From Candidatus Limnocylindrales bacterium (lineage in GTDB: Bacteria > Verrucomicrobiota > Verrucomicrobiia > Limisphaerales > UBA11358): a stretch of DNA of 64,000 nt. The stretch spans positions 2,202 to 66,201 of the forward strand of contig DATNHM010000027.1 of the NCBI GenBank assembly GCA_035604955.1, written 5' to 3'. The position numbers and the translations under genes were made by a program. This document shows, in pieces, positions 1,557 to 63,299 of this stretch (within the stretch, counting starts at the first letter, position 1; every line of letters starts with the position of its first letter). The notes under the pieces were generated by a model. It made no database searches, was not told the origin of the DNA, and was given only the letters and a program-made list of their open reading frames with translations.

Positions 1557-3296
1557 TCAATTGACCGCGACCGGGACCGGCTCTGCTTCCCACAACACCC
1601 GATCGCACCAGTCGCCGAACCGTTCGCCGGGATTTCGTTCCTTGGCAAATCGGGCGAGCACGGGACGCAATTCGTTTTCGATATCCGGGTCCTTGACCGT
1701 TTCCTTCCACACGCGATTAAGGCGCGTGCCGGAGACATTGCCACCAAGCCAGAGCTGATAACGCCCCGGCGCTTTGCCGACGAATCCGATTTCGGCCATG
1801 TAAGGCCGCGCGCAGCCGTTCGGGCAACCGGTCGAGCGGATGATGATTTCCTCGTCACCCAGTCCCAAATCGCCGCAAAGCTTTTCGATACGGTCAACGA
1901 GTGCGGGCAATATCCGTTCGCTTTCGGCGAGCGCGAGGCCGCACGTGGGCAGGGCGGGGCAGGCCATCGCGGCGGCGTGCAGGAGGCTTGCCTGATTTTC
2001 AACCGGAATTTTGTGCGCGGCAAAAATCGAATTGATGCCGGCTTTGTCCGCATCGTTCACGTTGGCGAGAATCACATTCTGATTCGTGGTCAGGTGGAAT
2101 CCGGTTTGCGGAAATTTCTCCGCGATTTCGCGTAGTGCGATTTTTTTTTCGTTTTTTACGCGGCCGGTTTCGACAAACAGCGTGAAAAAGTTTTTCCCGT
2201 CCACGGCCTTGTGCCAGCCGAGTAAATCGGCAGTCGTTGTGAACCGGTAAGGCCTGATCGGCGCGAATTGGATGCCGGCGCGTTTCTCGACTTCGGCGCG
2301 CGTCCAATCCACGCCGCGCTCCTCGACAACGTATTTAAAGCGCGCGTGCTTGCGGTCGGTGCGGTCGCCAAAATCACGGTGTATCGTCAGCACGGCTTTG
2401 GCGACATCAATCAATTTGTCCGGCGTGATAAATCCGAGTTCGCTCGCCAGACGCGGATACGTTTCCTTGTTTCCGTGCGTGCGTCCCATGCCGCCGCCGA
2501 CGACGAGGTTGTAACCGACTAATTTGGAGTTGGGAGATAGAAGTTGGGAGTTGGGGTTTTCCCTATCTCCCATTTCCGAACTGCCATCTTCGATGATGGC
2601 GATAAAGCCCTGGTCGTTGGTGAAAATGTCGAGGTCGTTCACCGGCGGGATGACGAACGCGGTTTTGAATTTTCGCGGCAAATAAGTTTTGCCGTAAAGC
2701 GGGTCAACGAACGCCCGATTGAACGGGTCATCAATCTTGAGCTGGAAACCGTCAATCCAGATGGCGTAATAAGCGCGGGTCTGCGGCTTCAGCGCATCCG
2801 CCACCCGCACGCAATCGCGATAGACTTCGTCACGCGCCTTGGTGTAGGCGGGCGTGGGTGGCGCGAGGACGTTACGGTTCACGTCGCCGCAAGCCGCAAG
2901 CGTGGAGAGCAGGCACTCATTGATCTTTTTGACCACCAGGCGCAGGTTCGCCTTGACGACGCCGTGAAACTGAATGGTCTGGCGGGTCGTAATTCGCAGC
3001 GTGTTGTTACCATACAGCCACGCGAGTTCGTCGAACACGCGCCACTGGTTGGCGGTCATCACACCGCCGGGAATGCGGCTGCGAATCATCATGATATATT
3101 TCCGGCCGGCCGCCGAACGCAAATCGCGGTCGTCCTGCGGATAAACGCCGTGAAATTTCAGGAATTGGGCGTCGTCGCCCGAGAACGTGTCGGCGGTCGG
3201 GTCGGCCAGCCTGGACGCGATGGTGCCCGCGAGCGTGGGAATCGCTTCCTTGATCTCTTCATTGTGCGTCAACTCGCGTGGAGCCTCTGTACTCAT
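1557..3296 (-). CDS. cysI: sulfite reductase hemoprotein (siroheme/4Fe-4S; CysI/Sir type)
   Basis: 579 aa. Motifs seen: RITTRQTIQFHGV, LVVGGGMGRTHGN, and the cluster cysteines CPALPTCGLA and TGCPNGCARP. Confidence 0.93.
   Translation of the reverse strand: MSTEAPRELTHNEEIKEAIPTLAGTIASRLADPTADTFSGDDAQFLKFHGVYPQDDRDLRSAAGRKYIMMIRSRIPGGVMTANQWRVFDELAWLYGNNTLRITTRQTIQFHGVVKANLRLVVKKINECLLSTLAACGDVNRNVLAPPTPAYTKARDEVYRDCVRVADALKPQTRAYYAIWIDGFQLKIDDPFNRAFVDPLYGKTYLPRKFKTAFVIPPVNDLDIFTNDQGFIAIIEDGSSEMGDRENPNSQLLSPNSKLVGYNLVVGGGMGRTHGNKETYPRLASELGFITPDKLIDVAKAVLTIHRDFGDRTDRKHARFKYVVEERGVDWTRAEVEKRAGIQFAPIRPYRFTTTADLLGWHKAVDGKNFFTLFVETGRVKNEKKIALREIAEKFPQTGFHLTTNQNVILANVNDADKAGINSIFAAHKIPVENQASLLHAAAMACPALPTCGLALAESERILPALVDRIEKLCGDLGLGDEEIIIRSTGCPNGCARPYMAEIGFVGKAPGRYQLWLGGNVSGTRLNRVWKETVKDPDIENELRPVLARFAKERNPGERFGDWCDRVLWEAEPVPVAVN
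2527..2571. repeat. heptamer-periodic segment with a 9-bp inverted repeat, in frame inside cysI
   Basis: gggagatag (2532-2540) is the reverse complement of ctatctccc (2563-2571). The minus strand reads AACTCCC/AACTTCT/ATCTCCC/AACTCCA units. It encodes the extra peptide SSEMGDRENPNSQLLSPNS. Confidence 0.7.
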
Positions 3297-3413
3297 ATAC
3301 GAACGACTAGAATAACAGGTTTCCTTTTTGCCCGCAACAAGCGAACTACTGAGCGCAGGTGCGGATGCAAAAAGGCGGAAGGTGATTGCCTGTTCAAGCG
3401 CTGCTTGTCAGGC

Positions 3414-3857
3414 AAAGGCTGAATTCTAAAGACTGAAGGCTAAAGTGAGGTATTTCAGGCTTTGGCTTTTTTGTCAATGGTCGTAAAGATAGCGATGAGT
3501 TGTCGTGTTTCGTCAAGCAGCTCGGCCATTCGGCCGGCTGGAACGCAGCCACTATCCACGATCAATTCGAGCCAATATTCGGTTTCATCAATTTCTTTGA
3601 GACAGTCGCCTATCTTGGAAATGAACTCCGCTTTGGAACGGGCGCGGGGGGCTTCGCGATAATTTGCGCCAACCGATGTTCCGGAGCGCAAGACCTGCCG
3701 GCCGAGCACCTGTGCGACGGCGTTGTTCCCGGGCAGTTTGGAATACATATGAATGACCCGAAGCGCAAACGCCTTTGTTCGTATTTTTAAATCCTTCGCC
3801 TGTTCGTTCATATTTCTTTAGCCTTTAGCGTTCAGCCTTCAGTCTTTGCTTTTCAGG
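3414..3857. repeat. complementary heptamer arrays bracketing the four-helix-bundle gene
   Basis: aaagactgaaggct (3428-3441) is the exact reverse complement of agccttcagtcttt (3834-3847). Both arms are 7-nt periodic: (ggctgaa ttctaaa gactgaa ggctaaa) versus (ctttagc ctttagc gttcagc cttcagt ctttgct tttcagg). Confidence 0.8.
3455..3811 (-). CDS. four-helix-bundle protein (23S rRNA intervening-sequence protein family, TIGR02436-like)
   Basis: 118 aa: FALRVIHMYSKLP...LGRQVLRSGTSVGANYREAPRARSKAEFISKIGDCLKEIDETEYWLELI. This is the typical signature of the family. Confidence 0.85.
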   Translation of the reverse strand: MNEQAKDLKIRTKAFALRVIHMYSKLPGNNAVAQVLGRQVLRSGTSVGANYREAPRARSKAEFISKIGDCLKEIDETEYWLELIVDSGCVPAGRMAELLDETRQLIAIFTTIDKKAKA

Positions 3858-41573: not shown

Positions 41574-41828
41574 ATGCAGGCGTTTTTGGAATACGTCATC
41601 AAGGGACTGGTGCAACATCCCGAGGCGGTTTCCATTACGCCGGTGGAACGCGAGGGCATGACGGTATACGAGCTGCGCCTGGATCAGCAGGACGTCGGCA
41701 AAATTATCGGCCGGCACGGTGTGACGATCAACGCCATCCGATCCTTGTTGCTGGCCGGCAGCGCCCGCAAGGGCCTGCGTTGTTCGGTGGAAATCGTCGA
41801 GGACAAACCGGCGGGTCGCAGTCAGTAG
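41574..41828 (+). CDS. KH-domain RNA-binding protein (UPF0109/YlqC family)
   Basis: The ATG at 41574 and the GKIIGRHGVTINAIRSL GxxG KH motif. It occupies the canonical position after rpsP. Confidence 0.85.
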   Translation: MQAFLEYVIKGLVQHPEAVSITPVEREGMTVYELRLDQQDVGKIIGRHGVTINAIRSLLLAGSARKGLRCSVEIVEDKPAGRSQ

Positions 41829-41902
41829 TGGGCAGTCAGTAGTCCGTAGCAAAACGACTCGCGGGCAATTGCCACTGACTATTAACTACTGACTACTGAC
41901 TG
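41819..41902. repeat. AGTCAGT-heptamer hairpin filling the KH-trmD spacer
   Basis: cagtcagtagt (41819-41829) pairs with actactgactg (41892-41902). Inner repeats pair imperfectly. The apex palindrome is ggcaattgcc (41864-41873). The left arm overlaps the KH stop and the right arm abuts the trmD GTG. Confidence 0.8.
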
Positions 41903-42571
41903 GTGAAAATTGACGTGCTCACATTGTTTCCGGCGATGTTCGCCGGGCCGCTCGATGAAAGCATCATCCAGCGCGCGCGGGCCGGCGGATTGCTGGATGT
42001 GAAGATTCACCAGCTCCGTGACTGGGCGCATGACCGGCACAAAACGGTGGATGACCGTCCGTTTGGCGGCGGGCCGGGGATGTTGCTGAAGCCCGAACCG
42101 CTCTTTGAAGCGATTGAAGATTTGCGGCGCAAAAGCACGCGCGTGATTTTGTTGTCGCCGGCCGGCCGGAAATTTGATCAGGCCATCGCGCGCGAACTGG
42201 CTGGACAAAAACATCTGTTGCTGGTCACCGGGCATTACGAAGGTTTTGACGAGCGCGTGCGGGAAAAACTGGCCGACGACGAGTTGTCCATCGGCGACTA
42301 CGTGTTGACCAACGGCGCGCTGCCCGCAATGGTGGTGATCGACGCGGTGACCCGGTTGTTGCCCGGCGTGCTGGGCGACGATGAAAGTTCGCGCGACGAG
42401 TCGTTCAGCGCCGGATTGCTGGAATATCCGCAATACACACGGCCGGCGGAATTTCGCGGGATGAAAGTTCCCGGGATGTTGTTGTCCGGCAACCACGCTG
42501 AAATTAAAAAGTGGCGCGCAGAGCAGGCGAAGTTGCGGACGAAATGGCAGCGGCCGGATTTGCTGAAATAG
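41903..42571 (+). CDS. trmD: tRNA (guanine37-N1)-methyltransferase
   Basis: GTG start. Sequence reads [13 protein letters not shown]...[12 protein letters not shown]...[10 protein letters not shown]...[10 protein letters not shown]. Confidence 0.96.
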
Positions 42572-42650
42572 TTTTTAATTTTTAGTTTTGAATTTTGAAT
42601 TCGAAACGCGGCAATTAAAAATTAAGAATTAAAAATTTAAAATTGATTTT
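42572..42650. repeat. AT-rich heptamer hairpin filling the trmD-rplS spacer
   Basis: The left units tttttaa tttttag ttttgaa ttttgaa face the right units aattaaa aattaag aattaaa aatttaa. Complementarity is imperfect. Confidence 0.65.
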
Positions 42651-55240: not shown

Positions 55241-55317
55241 GATTTACGATATTCGATTTACGAGTCTCTTGAGAATTGGCTGCGGCGCGCAAATCATAGA
55301 TCGCAAATCGCAAATTA
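55241..55317. repeat. heptamer hairpin between the pyrD stop and the channel-like gene
   Basis: gatttac gatattc gatttac (55241-55261) faces gcaaatc atagatc gcaaatc gcaaatt (55290-55317), with one mismatch per unit. Confidence 0.65.
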
Positions 55318-56229: not shown

Positions 56230-56263
56230 GAAAGCACCTCCGGGCTGAGGGGAAAAATGGATG

Positions 56264-56361
56264 AACATTCAACATTCAACATCGAACTTCGAACATCAAA
56301 TGACTCCATTCGCCCGTCACTCTGGTTGGGCGTTGAATGTTGAATGTTGAATGTTGAATGT
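56264..56361. repeat. complementary heptamer arrays (AACATTC x5 versus GTTGAAT x4) forming a long hairpin in the pyrK-pyrD spacer
   Basis: attcaac attcaac atcgaac ttcgaac (56267-56294) faces gttgaat x4 (56332-56359). The loop is about 37 nt. Confidence 0.85.
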
Positions 56362-56383
56362 TTTCCACCCATAAATTGAAATC

Positions 56384-62042: not shown

Positions 62043-63299
62043 ATGGAACGACTGCCCGGTTTCCGCGATTTTTATCCCGAACCCCTGCCGTCCCGCGACA
62101 CGGGATGGAGTTTTGACGCCCGCCAATACGTCTTCGATAAATGGCGTGAAACCGCCCGGCGCTACGGCTTCCGCGAATACGACGGACCCCCGCTGGAATC
62201 ACTCGAACTCTTTACCACCAAAAGCGGCGACGAAATCGTCGGGCAGCTCTACAATTTCACCGACAAAGGCGACCGCGCCGTAGCGCTCCGGCCGGAAATG
62301 ACGCCGACGCTGGCGCGCATGGTTGCTGCGCACGAACGCAACTACAAGAAACCCATCAAGTGGTTCGCCATCCCGCAACTGTTCCGCTACGAACGGCAGC
62401 AGAAGGGCCGGTTGCGCGAGCATTTCCAGTTCAACGCCGACCTCATCGGCGAGACCGATCCGGCGGCGGACGCGGAACTCATCGCGCTGCTCATTGACAC
62501 GCTGCGGTCATTCGGCCTGACCGAACAGGATTTTATCATCCGCCTGAGCAGCCGGAACGCGTGGCACGAATTTTATGAAGCCGGAAGTCAGAAGTCAGAA
62601 GTCAGAAGTGCCAGCCACGAATACGAATTTTTCCAGACGATTGACAAACTGGAGCGCACGCCGCCGGAAGAGAGTGAAAAGAAGCTGGCCGCGCTCGGAT
62701 TTTCATTGGCCGACGTGAACCGGTTCATCGAATCCGGCAAACCGGCGGCGGGGTTGCAGAGCATTCTCGACAATCTCGCGGCGCGCGGTCTGCGCAATTT
62801 TGTGAAAGTGGATTACCACGTCATTCGCGGGCTGGCGTATTACACCGGCGTGGTGTTTGAGGCATTCGATGCCCAAGGCGAGTTCCGCGCCATCGCCGGC
62901 GGCGGGCGTTACGACAACCTCGTCAAGCTCGTCAGCGGCGGCAAGGTGGATTTGCCCGCGCTCGGCTTCGGCATGGGCGACGTAGTGCTGTTGGAACTGC
63001 TCAAAGCGCGCGGTTTACTGCCGAAATTCGACGCTGTTACCGATGTTTTTGTTTTGATTGAAGACGAAACATTGCGCGTCCAATCACTCAAGCTCGTACA
63101 GGAGTTGCGCGCCGCCGGTTTTGCGGTGGATTATCCGCTGACACCCGTCAAGCCGGACAAGCAATTCAAACGAGCGCAGGAGTTGAAGGTGGGTCACACC
63201 GCCCGCGTGGAAAGCGACGCCTATGTGCGCATCCGGAATTTGAAGACCCGCGATGAAGTCGTCGCTGGCTTTGCCGACGTGGCGAATCATCTGGGATGA
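62043..63299 (+). CDS. hisS: histidine--tRNA ligase
   Basis: 418 aa. Class II motifs seen: MERLPGFRDFYP, ALRPEMT, FRYERQQKGRLREHFQ, GGGRYDNL. Confidence 0.96.
   Translation: MERLPGFRDFYPEPLPSRDTGWSFDARQYVFDKWRETARRYGFREYDGPPLESLELFTTKSGDEIVGQLYNFTDKGDRAVALRPEMTPTLARMVAAHERNYKKPIKWFAIPQLFRYERQQKGRLREHFQFNADLIGETDPAADAELIALLIDTLRSFGLTEQDFIIRLSSRNAWHEFYEAGSQKSEVRSASHEYEFFQTIDKLERTPPEESEKKLAALGFSLADVNRFIESGKPAAGLQSILDNLAARGLRNFVKVDYHVIRGLAYYTGVVFEAFDAQGEFRAIAGGGRYDNLVKLVSGGKVDLPALGFGMGDVVLLELLKARGLLPKFDAVTDVFVLIEDETLRVQSLKLVQELRAAGFAVDYPLTPVKPDKQFKRAQELKVGHTARVESDAYVRIRNLKTRDEVVAGFADVANHLG
62584..62611. repeat. tandem heptamers GAAGTCA x3 (+1 imperfect) in frame inside hisS
   Basis: gaagtca gaagtca gaagtca gaagtgc, translated as SQKSEVRSA. 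It is flanked by the 9-nt direct repeats acgaatttt at 62566-62574 and 62623-62631. Confidence 0.9.

Follow-up and report, generated by a model that had tools for sequence, protein, structure and literature searches.

A heptanucleotide repeat in a verrucomicrobial hisS gene, probably expanded in frame within an ancient and tolerant loop of histidyl-tRNA synthetase

The histidyl-tRNA synthetase (HisRS) gene hisS, in a 64,000-nucleotide stretch of a metagenome-assembled genome (GenBank contig DATNHM010000027.1, positions 2,202 to 66,201; the whole of this stretch is referred to here as the window), carries a run of 7-nt repeats between two copies of a 9-nt sequence. This arrangement raises the question of whether a piece of DNA was inserted into the gene, with duplication of its target, or whether a segment already present was expanded in place. 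The second is the likely answer, and the feature is best described as a five-unit heptanucleotide simple sequence repeat (SSR) that expanded in frame within a HisRS helix-turn-helix loop that is ancient and selectively tolerant. The host belongs to the Verrucomicrobiota (Limisphaerales/Pedosphaeraceae-like), and the contigs matching it came from peat metagenomes. The hisS open reading frame (ORF) matched the Pfam families tRNA-synt_His (8.9e-39), tRNA-synt_2b and HGTP_anticodon, and the best solved relatives of its product were 3hri/3hrk (3.5e-78), with trypanosomatid and archaeal-type HisRS being closest. The encoded enzyme is full-length, and the class II and HisRS motifs are intact.

The original prediction placed the 9-mer ACGAATTTT at 62566-62574 and 62623-62631, 57 nt apart, with three perfect and one imperfect GAAGTCA heptamers between the two copies and the peptide WHEF-YEAGSQKSEVRSASHEYEF-FQTIDKL inside the HisRS frame, and all of these details were confirmed. 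The array consists of five units (GAAGCCG, three of GAAGTCA, and GAAGTGC), covers 35 nt and encodes EAGSQKSEVRSA. Its perfect core, three GAAGTCA units followed by GAAGT (3.7 copies), lies at 62584-62609, and was given a score of 52 with 100% matches by Tandem Repeats Finder. The observed number of matches was reached in none of 100 shuffles, and the window contains three perfect period-7 runs where 0.05 are expected. The array is therefore a long simple-sequence repeat in the sense of at least three head-to-tail units of 5-11 nt, beyond chance. The array itself shows no RNA structure (folding z +0.25) and forms no hairpin, and neither an inverted partner array nor an ORF of the PF05635 family (23S_rRNA_IVP, an Avd-like four-helix bundle) was found at hisS.

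The age of the segment that holds the array was examined in 208 relatives, made up of the 120 closest orthologous proteins (83-100% identity), which were aligned, and 88 DNA loci from across the order with identities down to 60%, the latter being designated by L-numbers. In all 208, both flanking motifs, W-[HQ]-[ED]-F-[FY] and [Y]-x-F-[FY]-Q, are present with at least 11 residues between them. The first (motif A) has W and F/Y in 88 of 88 loci, with W174 and F177 invariant in alignment A1, while the second (motif B) takes the form [YA]-x-F-[FY]-Q in nearly all relatives, with F196 and Q198 invariant in the same alignment. In the deep branches, the distance from RLSSR to KLER is exactly 34 aa and the motifs are separated by a non-repetitive spacer of 11 residues, as in AWQEF-FESRCKDQDRA-YEFYQ, whereas in the window the same distance is 39 aa and in 92 of the 120 close orthologues it is 38-40 aa. 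The 57-nt (19-codon) insertion that had been proposed therefore reduces to a net gain of about five codons, as the segment between the 9-mers exists in every relative. A homologous segment was also recognisable in the Trypanosoma brucei and T. cruzi HisRS structures, where it shows a 5-residue gap in a gapped, non-conserved stretch. An AlphaFold2 (AF2) model places a helix at residues 171-184, a turn at 185-189 and a second helix at 190-201 at the start of the insertion domain (predicted local distance difference test score, pLDDT, of 70-83 for this block), suggesting that the array encodes the tip of a helical hairpin at this position.

The repeat unit was found to differ between relatives at this one loop. 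The ancestral spacer of 11 residues has grown to 13-17 residues in a crown clade that includes the window, where a 7-nt repeat accounts for much of its length, and the expanded loops cluster in this clade in a quick neighbour-joining (NJ) distance tree built with the loop masked. Four copies of GAAGTCA are present in L087, four of GAAGCCA in L086, GAAGGCR-type units in L084, 4.4 copies of GAATCCA in L011, four of GAAAGCG in L004, three of CGAGGAA in L015 and AGACGCC-like units in L003. There are thus at least six unit types at the orthologous loop, which is the turnover of units that characterises a long simple-sequence repeat. All of the loop arrays start at a Glu codon (GAA) directly behind the F-[YF] codons of the first aromatic motif, and the five-unit frame is fixed among the closest relatives. 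At the protein level, repetition at a lag of 7 aa was detected in 36 of 120 loops, with 25 distinct loop starts, while the array is absent from 15 of the 120 close orthologues and from all deep branches.

The divergence at 4-fold sites (K4) among the relatives compared ranged from 0.19 to 0.44. Over a K4 of 0.39-0.44, the chance that 26-33 neutral nucleotides remain unchanged is about 1e-5, and L086 differs from L087 by an identical T>C change in four units, from which it appears that the arrays have been re-homogenised or re-expanded and not merely retained. In the three closest relatives, L081-L083 (K4 0.19-0.35), the arrays are degenerate, and 10 of 35 nt differ from the window, which is approximately the neutral rate.

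A much larger expansion was found in L026, which is 69% identical. Its loop (coordinates 3532-3639) contains four GAACGCG units followed by about 10 ACCCCAG/CCGCCAG units, adding 29 aa in frame (ERGTRNAERGTQTPDPRPQPPDPRPQPP...), and the sister of L026, L048, has the basal loop. This 14-unit expansion represents an independent gain. Other relatives carry different repetitive DNA at the same position. A short GC hairpin ('GRDGVSPS' type) is present in the hisS loop of some, and long GC-rich palindromes, also in frame, were found in L088 (2453-2596), L002 (3532-3633), L005 (3532-3651) and L007 (1823-1927), with folding energies of -45 to -80 kcal/mol. The inserts of L088 and L002 have homology or end sequences in common, as do those of L005 and L007, but BLAST searches against all of the DNA collected revealed no other copies of these four inserts. 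The occurrence of heptamer arrays, GC hairpins and long palindromes in a single loop suggests that it is a permissive site, which would gather whatever repetitive DNA the genome generates.

The hisS array is one of many with this period. Among tandem arrays, those of period 7 make up 13 of the 15 found in the window and 38 of the 87 from all loci, and each period-7 array has its own unit, typically in 3.7-5 copies. Twelve of 14 arrays are in non-coding DNA, which makes up 11.7% of the window (P = 5e-10). Among those listed in Table 1 are three inverted pairs of arrays that enclose no ORF, and a solo array; trmD and the genes flanking the pair between trmD and rplS were identified using Pfam. 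The syntenic relative L082 has a GC-rich palindrome in place of the pyrD-pyrK heptamer hairpin, mirroring the behaviour of the hisS loop. This REP (repetitive extragenic palindromic)-like sequence (CCCTCTCCCCGC...GCGGGGAGAGGG) was seen at two intergenic sites in L082, at about 860-940 and about 2050-2110, one of which is the site that replaces the window's hairpin. Among long SSRs, heptanucleotides are described as the class found most often in many bacteria, attributed to polymerase slippage, and units that are not multiples of three as disfavoured within genes, in the account of Mrazek et al. (2007) given in PMC4679880 and PMC4692102. No link between heptanucleotide repeats and Verrucomicrobia was found in the searchable literature.

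Table 1. Positions of the hisS array and of related features in the 64,000-nt window
Feature	Position	Strand	Basis or remarks
57-nt (19-codon) in-frame insertion in cysI (sulfite reductase hemoprotein, 1557..3296), recent	2532..2588	-	Filled versus empty sites
IVS-like cassette between ubiA and cysI; PF05635 ORF at 3455..3811	3410..3847	-	Pfam 2e-16
Inverted pair AGTCAGT / ACTGACT without ORF, directly upstream of trmD (41903..42571)	41820..41901	+	Hairpin -38.9 kcal/mol, z -3.75
Inverted pair of AT-rich heptamers without ORF, between trmD and rplS	42569..42644	+	z -2.2
Solo heptamer array CGCAAAT, just after pyrD	55288..55315	-	Position and unit family kept in L082
Inverted pair GAACATY / GTTGAAT without ORF, between pyrD and pyrK-like gene	56263..56362	-	Hairpin -44.4 kcal/mol, z -4.8
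hisS, histidyl-tRNA synthetase, 418 aa, archaeal/eukaryote-like type	62043..63299	+	ORF, Pfam and solved relatives
Conserved motif A, W-H-E-F-Y, residues 174-178, end of first helix; holds 9-mer copy 1	62562..62576	+	Alignments and AF2
Five-unit in-frame heptanucleotide array in hisS	62577..62611	+	
Conserved motif B, Y-E-F-F-Q, residues 194-198, in second helix; holds 9-mer copy 2	62622..62636	+	Alignments and AF2

If the hisS feature is an SSR expanded in place, replication slippage or misaligned repair would both produce the array and re-homogenise it, and the process would be the one that fills the intergenic spacers of this genome with period-7 arrays. Selection on a presumably essential aminoacyl-tRNA synthetase would purge lengths that break the frame, so that the array would be frozen at five units while the unit sequence drifts in concert. 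Slippage combined with gene conversion is the presumed mechanism; that the encoded peptide is neutral is likewise presumed, as is the precise seed of the array. Several points weigh against this explanation. As steps of one unit are frameshifts in a presumably essential gene, the route by which homogenisation could occur without a change in length is unexplained, and generic polymerase slippage does not account for the inverted complementary array pairs or for the link with PF05635 genes described below. No slippage event was observed directly, and contigs of four metagenomes contain a single array length; metagenome contigs were also scanned for window-type arrays of 1-9 units with window-type edge anchors, and no match was found. 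With a mean pLDDT of 54, the AF2 model is of poor quality overall, and only its local secondary structure was used, together with the sequence alignment. The NJ tree was built quickly from distances, which leaves the count of independent gains within the crown clade uncertain.

The alternative that survives best derives the hisS array from a system resembling the 23S rRNA intervening sequences (IVS). In this explanation, heptamer arrays in the genome form the arms of IVS-like hairpins, with or without a PF05635 gene inside, and arrays are seeded or copied by a process connected with these elements. The hisS array would then be a by-product of the system, and it and the cysI hairpin would represent spill-over into permissive coding loops. 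The window itself contains a PF05635 gene bracketed by inverted heptamer arrays, at 3816-3847 upstream and 3410-3445 downstream, with an arm duplex of -33 kcal/mol. Counterparts of the cassette region were located in L090 (2005-2560) and L089 (2875-3003). In L089, the ORF is absent from the ubiA-cysI spacer and a short hairpin of the same unit family as the window cassette is retained, and the difference between the window and L089 is a presence/absence polymorphism of the cassette. A precedent is provided by the Coxiella IVS, in which GACAGAT repeats precede the S23p ORF and vary in copy number between strains (PMC4990558), and beyond this example no report of an association between PF05635 and heptamer arrays was found in the searchable literature.

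Heptamer arrays flank 7 of the 8 PF05635 ORFs in the collected loci. As most of these loci had been selected for an array, an unbiased sample of PF05635 genes was drawn by tblastn against plasmids, which yielded 12 genes from Cyanobacteria, Alphaproteobacteria, Gemmatimonadota and Bacteroidota (L212-L223, from Calothrix, Pseudanabaena, Aulosira, Nostoc, Picosynechococcus, Anabaena, Stanieria, Azospirillum, Geminocystis, Gemmatirosa and Riemerella). Heptamer arrays were present at the ends of 11-12 of the 12. A stretch with at least 85% periodicity at 7 nt was measured in 14 of 24 flanks, against 0.3 expected in shuffles. A period of 8 nt was seen in three further flanks, and other periods were practically absent. 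At 8 of the 12 genes, the sequences on the two sides are reverse complements of each other. Flanking arrays also occur at PF05635 genes in L108, L112, L144, L153 and L166, and the usual layout is a purine-rich array upstream and its reverse complement downstream. AGAAGTC/AGGAGTC, which is the hisS unit, occurs at PF05635 genes in L108, L144, L153, L214 and L215. In three of the plasmid loci (L213, L216 and L217), the PF05635 gene is wedged between CRISPR-associated genes, cas6/cas4 in Pseudanabaena and Anabaena 90 and cas10/cmr3 in Picosynechococcus. The genes at these cas loci look like small cassettes inserted inside operons.

The recent two-armed heptamer hairpin in cysI is a further observation in favour of an IVS-like origin. 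However, the hisS array has neither an inverted partner nor a PF05635 gene, in every lineage it begins at a local, conserved GAA codon, and the cassette in the window is built from other units. AGAAGTC-type arrays near PF05635 genes may also recur merely because they resemble Shine-Dalgarno sequences. The association is only a correlation and leaves the verdict on hisS unchanged; an origin of the hisS array as spill-over from such a system is considered unlikely. In a broader form of this proposal, bacterial heptamer arrays would not be plain products of slippage but would derive from a widespread hairpin element of IVS-like type, as its arms, and the full form of the element would enclose a PF05635 gene for an Avd-like pentameric four-helix bundle. 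The process that builds or propagates the arms would take its seed from local sequence and occasionally give rise to new arrays or hairpins in permissive loops of housekeeping genes, recently in cysI and repeatedly in hisS. This generalisation is regarded as doubtful.

A function under selection was also considered, either as a site for an RNA- or single-stranded-DNA-binding protein such as a cold-shock protein, as a translational pause site, or through the repetitive peptide. Several lineages do retain perfect arrays even though neutral divergence is 0.2-0.44, five units is a constant length among close relatives, and binding of cold-shock proteins to heptamer repeats has been discussed (PMC4679880). 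Set against this are the decay of the arrays in the three closest relatives, the GC hairpin or long palindromes that occupy the loop in others, the lack of an array in the 15 close orthologues and all deep branches mentioned above, and the lack of RNA structure in the region. The unit, and hence the peptide, differs between sister species, and selection on the repeated peptide was judged unlikely for this reason. Overall, a selected function for the array is quite improbable.

The insertion originally proposed, in which 57 nt of DNA, either a heptamer array or a small mobile element, entered hisS and duplicated a 9-nt target, is much harder to reconcile with the relatives. An alignment of orthologues in which the 19 residues were missing precisely at the repeat would have represented the empty site. 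The homologous segment was instead found in all relatives, and no site with a single copy of the repeat and no insert was present among the 120 proteins and 88 DNA loci. The form WHEFFQTIDKL, said to be restored by removal of the insert, was seen in none of the 208. No second copy of the segment was found in the window, and the segment has no terminal inverted repeats.

The 9-mer pair and its 57-nt spacing are real, but the 9-mers read as codons of the two ancestral motifs, cAC GAA TTT Tat encoding H-E-F-Y and tAC GAA TTT Ttc encoding Y-E-F-F. The 9-mer occurs twice in the window where 1.14 occurrences are expected, and 26 of 100 shuffles also gave at least two. Direct-repeat pairs of at least 9 nt spaced 20-100 nt apart are common, with 65 distinct pairs in the window against about 38 in shuffles, and an estimated 6% or so of window positions are bracketed by such a pair. 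Matches between the motif regions were found without any array in L001 (11 nt) and L045 (9 nt), both of which have the basal loop, and the 9-nt match is missing from L081 and L082, the closest relatives of the window, which do have an array; the repeat therefore follows codon choice at the two motifs. From these comparisons, the flanking 9-mers are the codons of two conserved aromatic helix motifs and not the scars of an insertion. The original prediction thus holds in part: the local expansion of a heptamer array within the HisRS insertion domain is supported, whereas the target-site duplication and the 19-residue insertion are not, as the segment has homologues in relatives and the 9-nt match is expected from chance and codon identity. 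An insertion is accordingly very improbable.

In favour of an insertion, one of the same size did occur elsewhere in this genome. The original prediction had reckoned that cysI also carries an insert of about 19 codons, and this is correct. The 57-nt in-frame insertion was found only in the window and in one relative that is 94% identical (P0121/L090), and is absent from 118 other orthologues, including one that is 91% identical. The empty site reads GAG-AAC-GAG-CAA-CTC-GTC. The insert is made up of CCCAACT-type heptamers, which resemble the local CAACTC, and an imperfect inverted copy, forming a hairpin with z -2.2. This is the appearance of a real recent insertion in this genome, and the hisS segment differs from it. 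In the cys cluster of relatives, a small PF13366 (PDDEXK_3) gene was observed between two 3'-phosphoadenosine-5'-phosphosulfate (PAPS) reductase genes (L089, 5416-5790; L091, 9427-9687). It represents a further small gene inserted into the spacer of an operon, and no heptamer arrays flank it in either locus.

The distribution of the unit itself was examined in metagenome contigs, where a scan for (GAAGTCA)3 recovered more than 120 sites, in contigs with GC contents of 33-69%, with a modal length of about four units and unrelated flanks. A crude count put 33 of 80 of these hits within long ORFs, but such a count is unreliable in GC-rich DNA and was set aside. The lack of conservation in the flanks and the broad range of GC contents suggest that GAAGTCA is a common SSR unit and not a mobile element with defined ends. 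Read depth over 62573-62614 rises about five-fold or more in four peat metagenomes because other contigs of the same communities carry (GAAGTCA)n with unrelated flanks. Short tandem repeats are prone to mis-assembly and this depth spike reflects k-mers common to other loci, but an assembly or sequencing artefact can practically be discarded, as contigs from four peat metagenome runs in three studies cross the in-frame array with no indels (though assembler contigs hide rare variants), and comparable in-frame arrays are present in orthologues from many independent assemblies.

The hisS array, read as an SSR expanded in frame, belongs to a known class, that of heptanucleotide SSRs, and is unusual in its in-frame siting, frozen length and concerted turnover of units. 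It resembles the heptanucleotide long simple-sequence repeats of Mrazek, Guo and Shah (2007), as these are presented in PMC4679880 and PMC4692102, in having about 4-5 head-to-tail 7-nt units against a genome-wide excess of period 7, with mostly intergenic arrays that vary in sequence and length between close relatives and slippage as the proposed origin. Unlike the usual members of that class as presented there, it is in frame in a presumably essential housekeeping gene, its length is frozen and its units change in concert. The GGGAATC arrays of Xanthomonas and GGGGAYT arrays of Nostoc (PMC4692102) and the TAACTGA arrays of Beggiatoaceae and cyanobacteria (PMC4679880) are similar to the arrays of this genome in being intergenic, in preferring about four units and in lying between co-directional genes, sometimes as inverted stem-loop pairs. 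Those genomes each favour one unit, which is G-quadruplex-forming or TAACTGA, whereas here nearly every locus has its own, and the hisS array has no G-quadruplex potential.

As in the phase-variable contingency loci of Haemophilus and Neisseria, the hisS unit is not a multiple of three and is located within an ORF. However, hisS encodes a presumably essential aminoacyl-tRNA synthetase and is not a surface or restriction gene, only in-frame lengths were found in the 208 orthologues, and no unit-number polymorphism was seen in contigs of the four runs, in which rare variants would be hidden. Rickettsia palindromic elements are dispersed copies of one mobile family that lie in frame in conserved genes. 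They are comparable in that housekeeping proteins accept in-frame repetitive DNA in their surface loops, and the palindromes of L088, L002, L005 and L007 and the cysI hairpin resemble them more than the hisS array does, the latter being a local tandem repeat with no conserved ends and no hairpin. With the short tandemly repeated repetitive (STRR) sequences of heterocystous cyanobacteria, only the tandem-heptamer format is held in common, as the host here is a verrucomicrobium and GAAGTCA is presumably not among the STRR consensus heptamers. In the Coxiella IVS (PMC4990558), the PF05635 ORF follows heptamer repeats and is enclosed by an inverted-repeat stem, and the window cassette has the same layout but is situated between protein-coding genes and not in rRNA. 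The hisS array lacks both the ORF and a partner arm.

The hisS locus indicates that a short direct repeat around a repetitive gene segment is no proof of insertion when the repeat encodes conserved residues. It is also a clean natural case in which a presumably essential gene holds a microsatellite with a unit length that cannot be divided by three, and is useful for studying the homogenisation of repeats without a change in length. The loop acts like an intergenic spacer, recording in its heptamer arrays, GC hairpins and long palindromes the repeat-generating processes of the genome. The association between PF05635 and heptamer arrays could outweigh the original finding, as it would, if confirmed genome-wide, tie an orphan family to long-unexplained bacterial repeats. 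If heptamer arrays were indeed the arms of IVS-like elements, the heptanucleotide excess in the STRRs of Nostocales, in Xanthomonas and in others, and the function of PF05635, would share one testable explanation.

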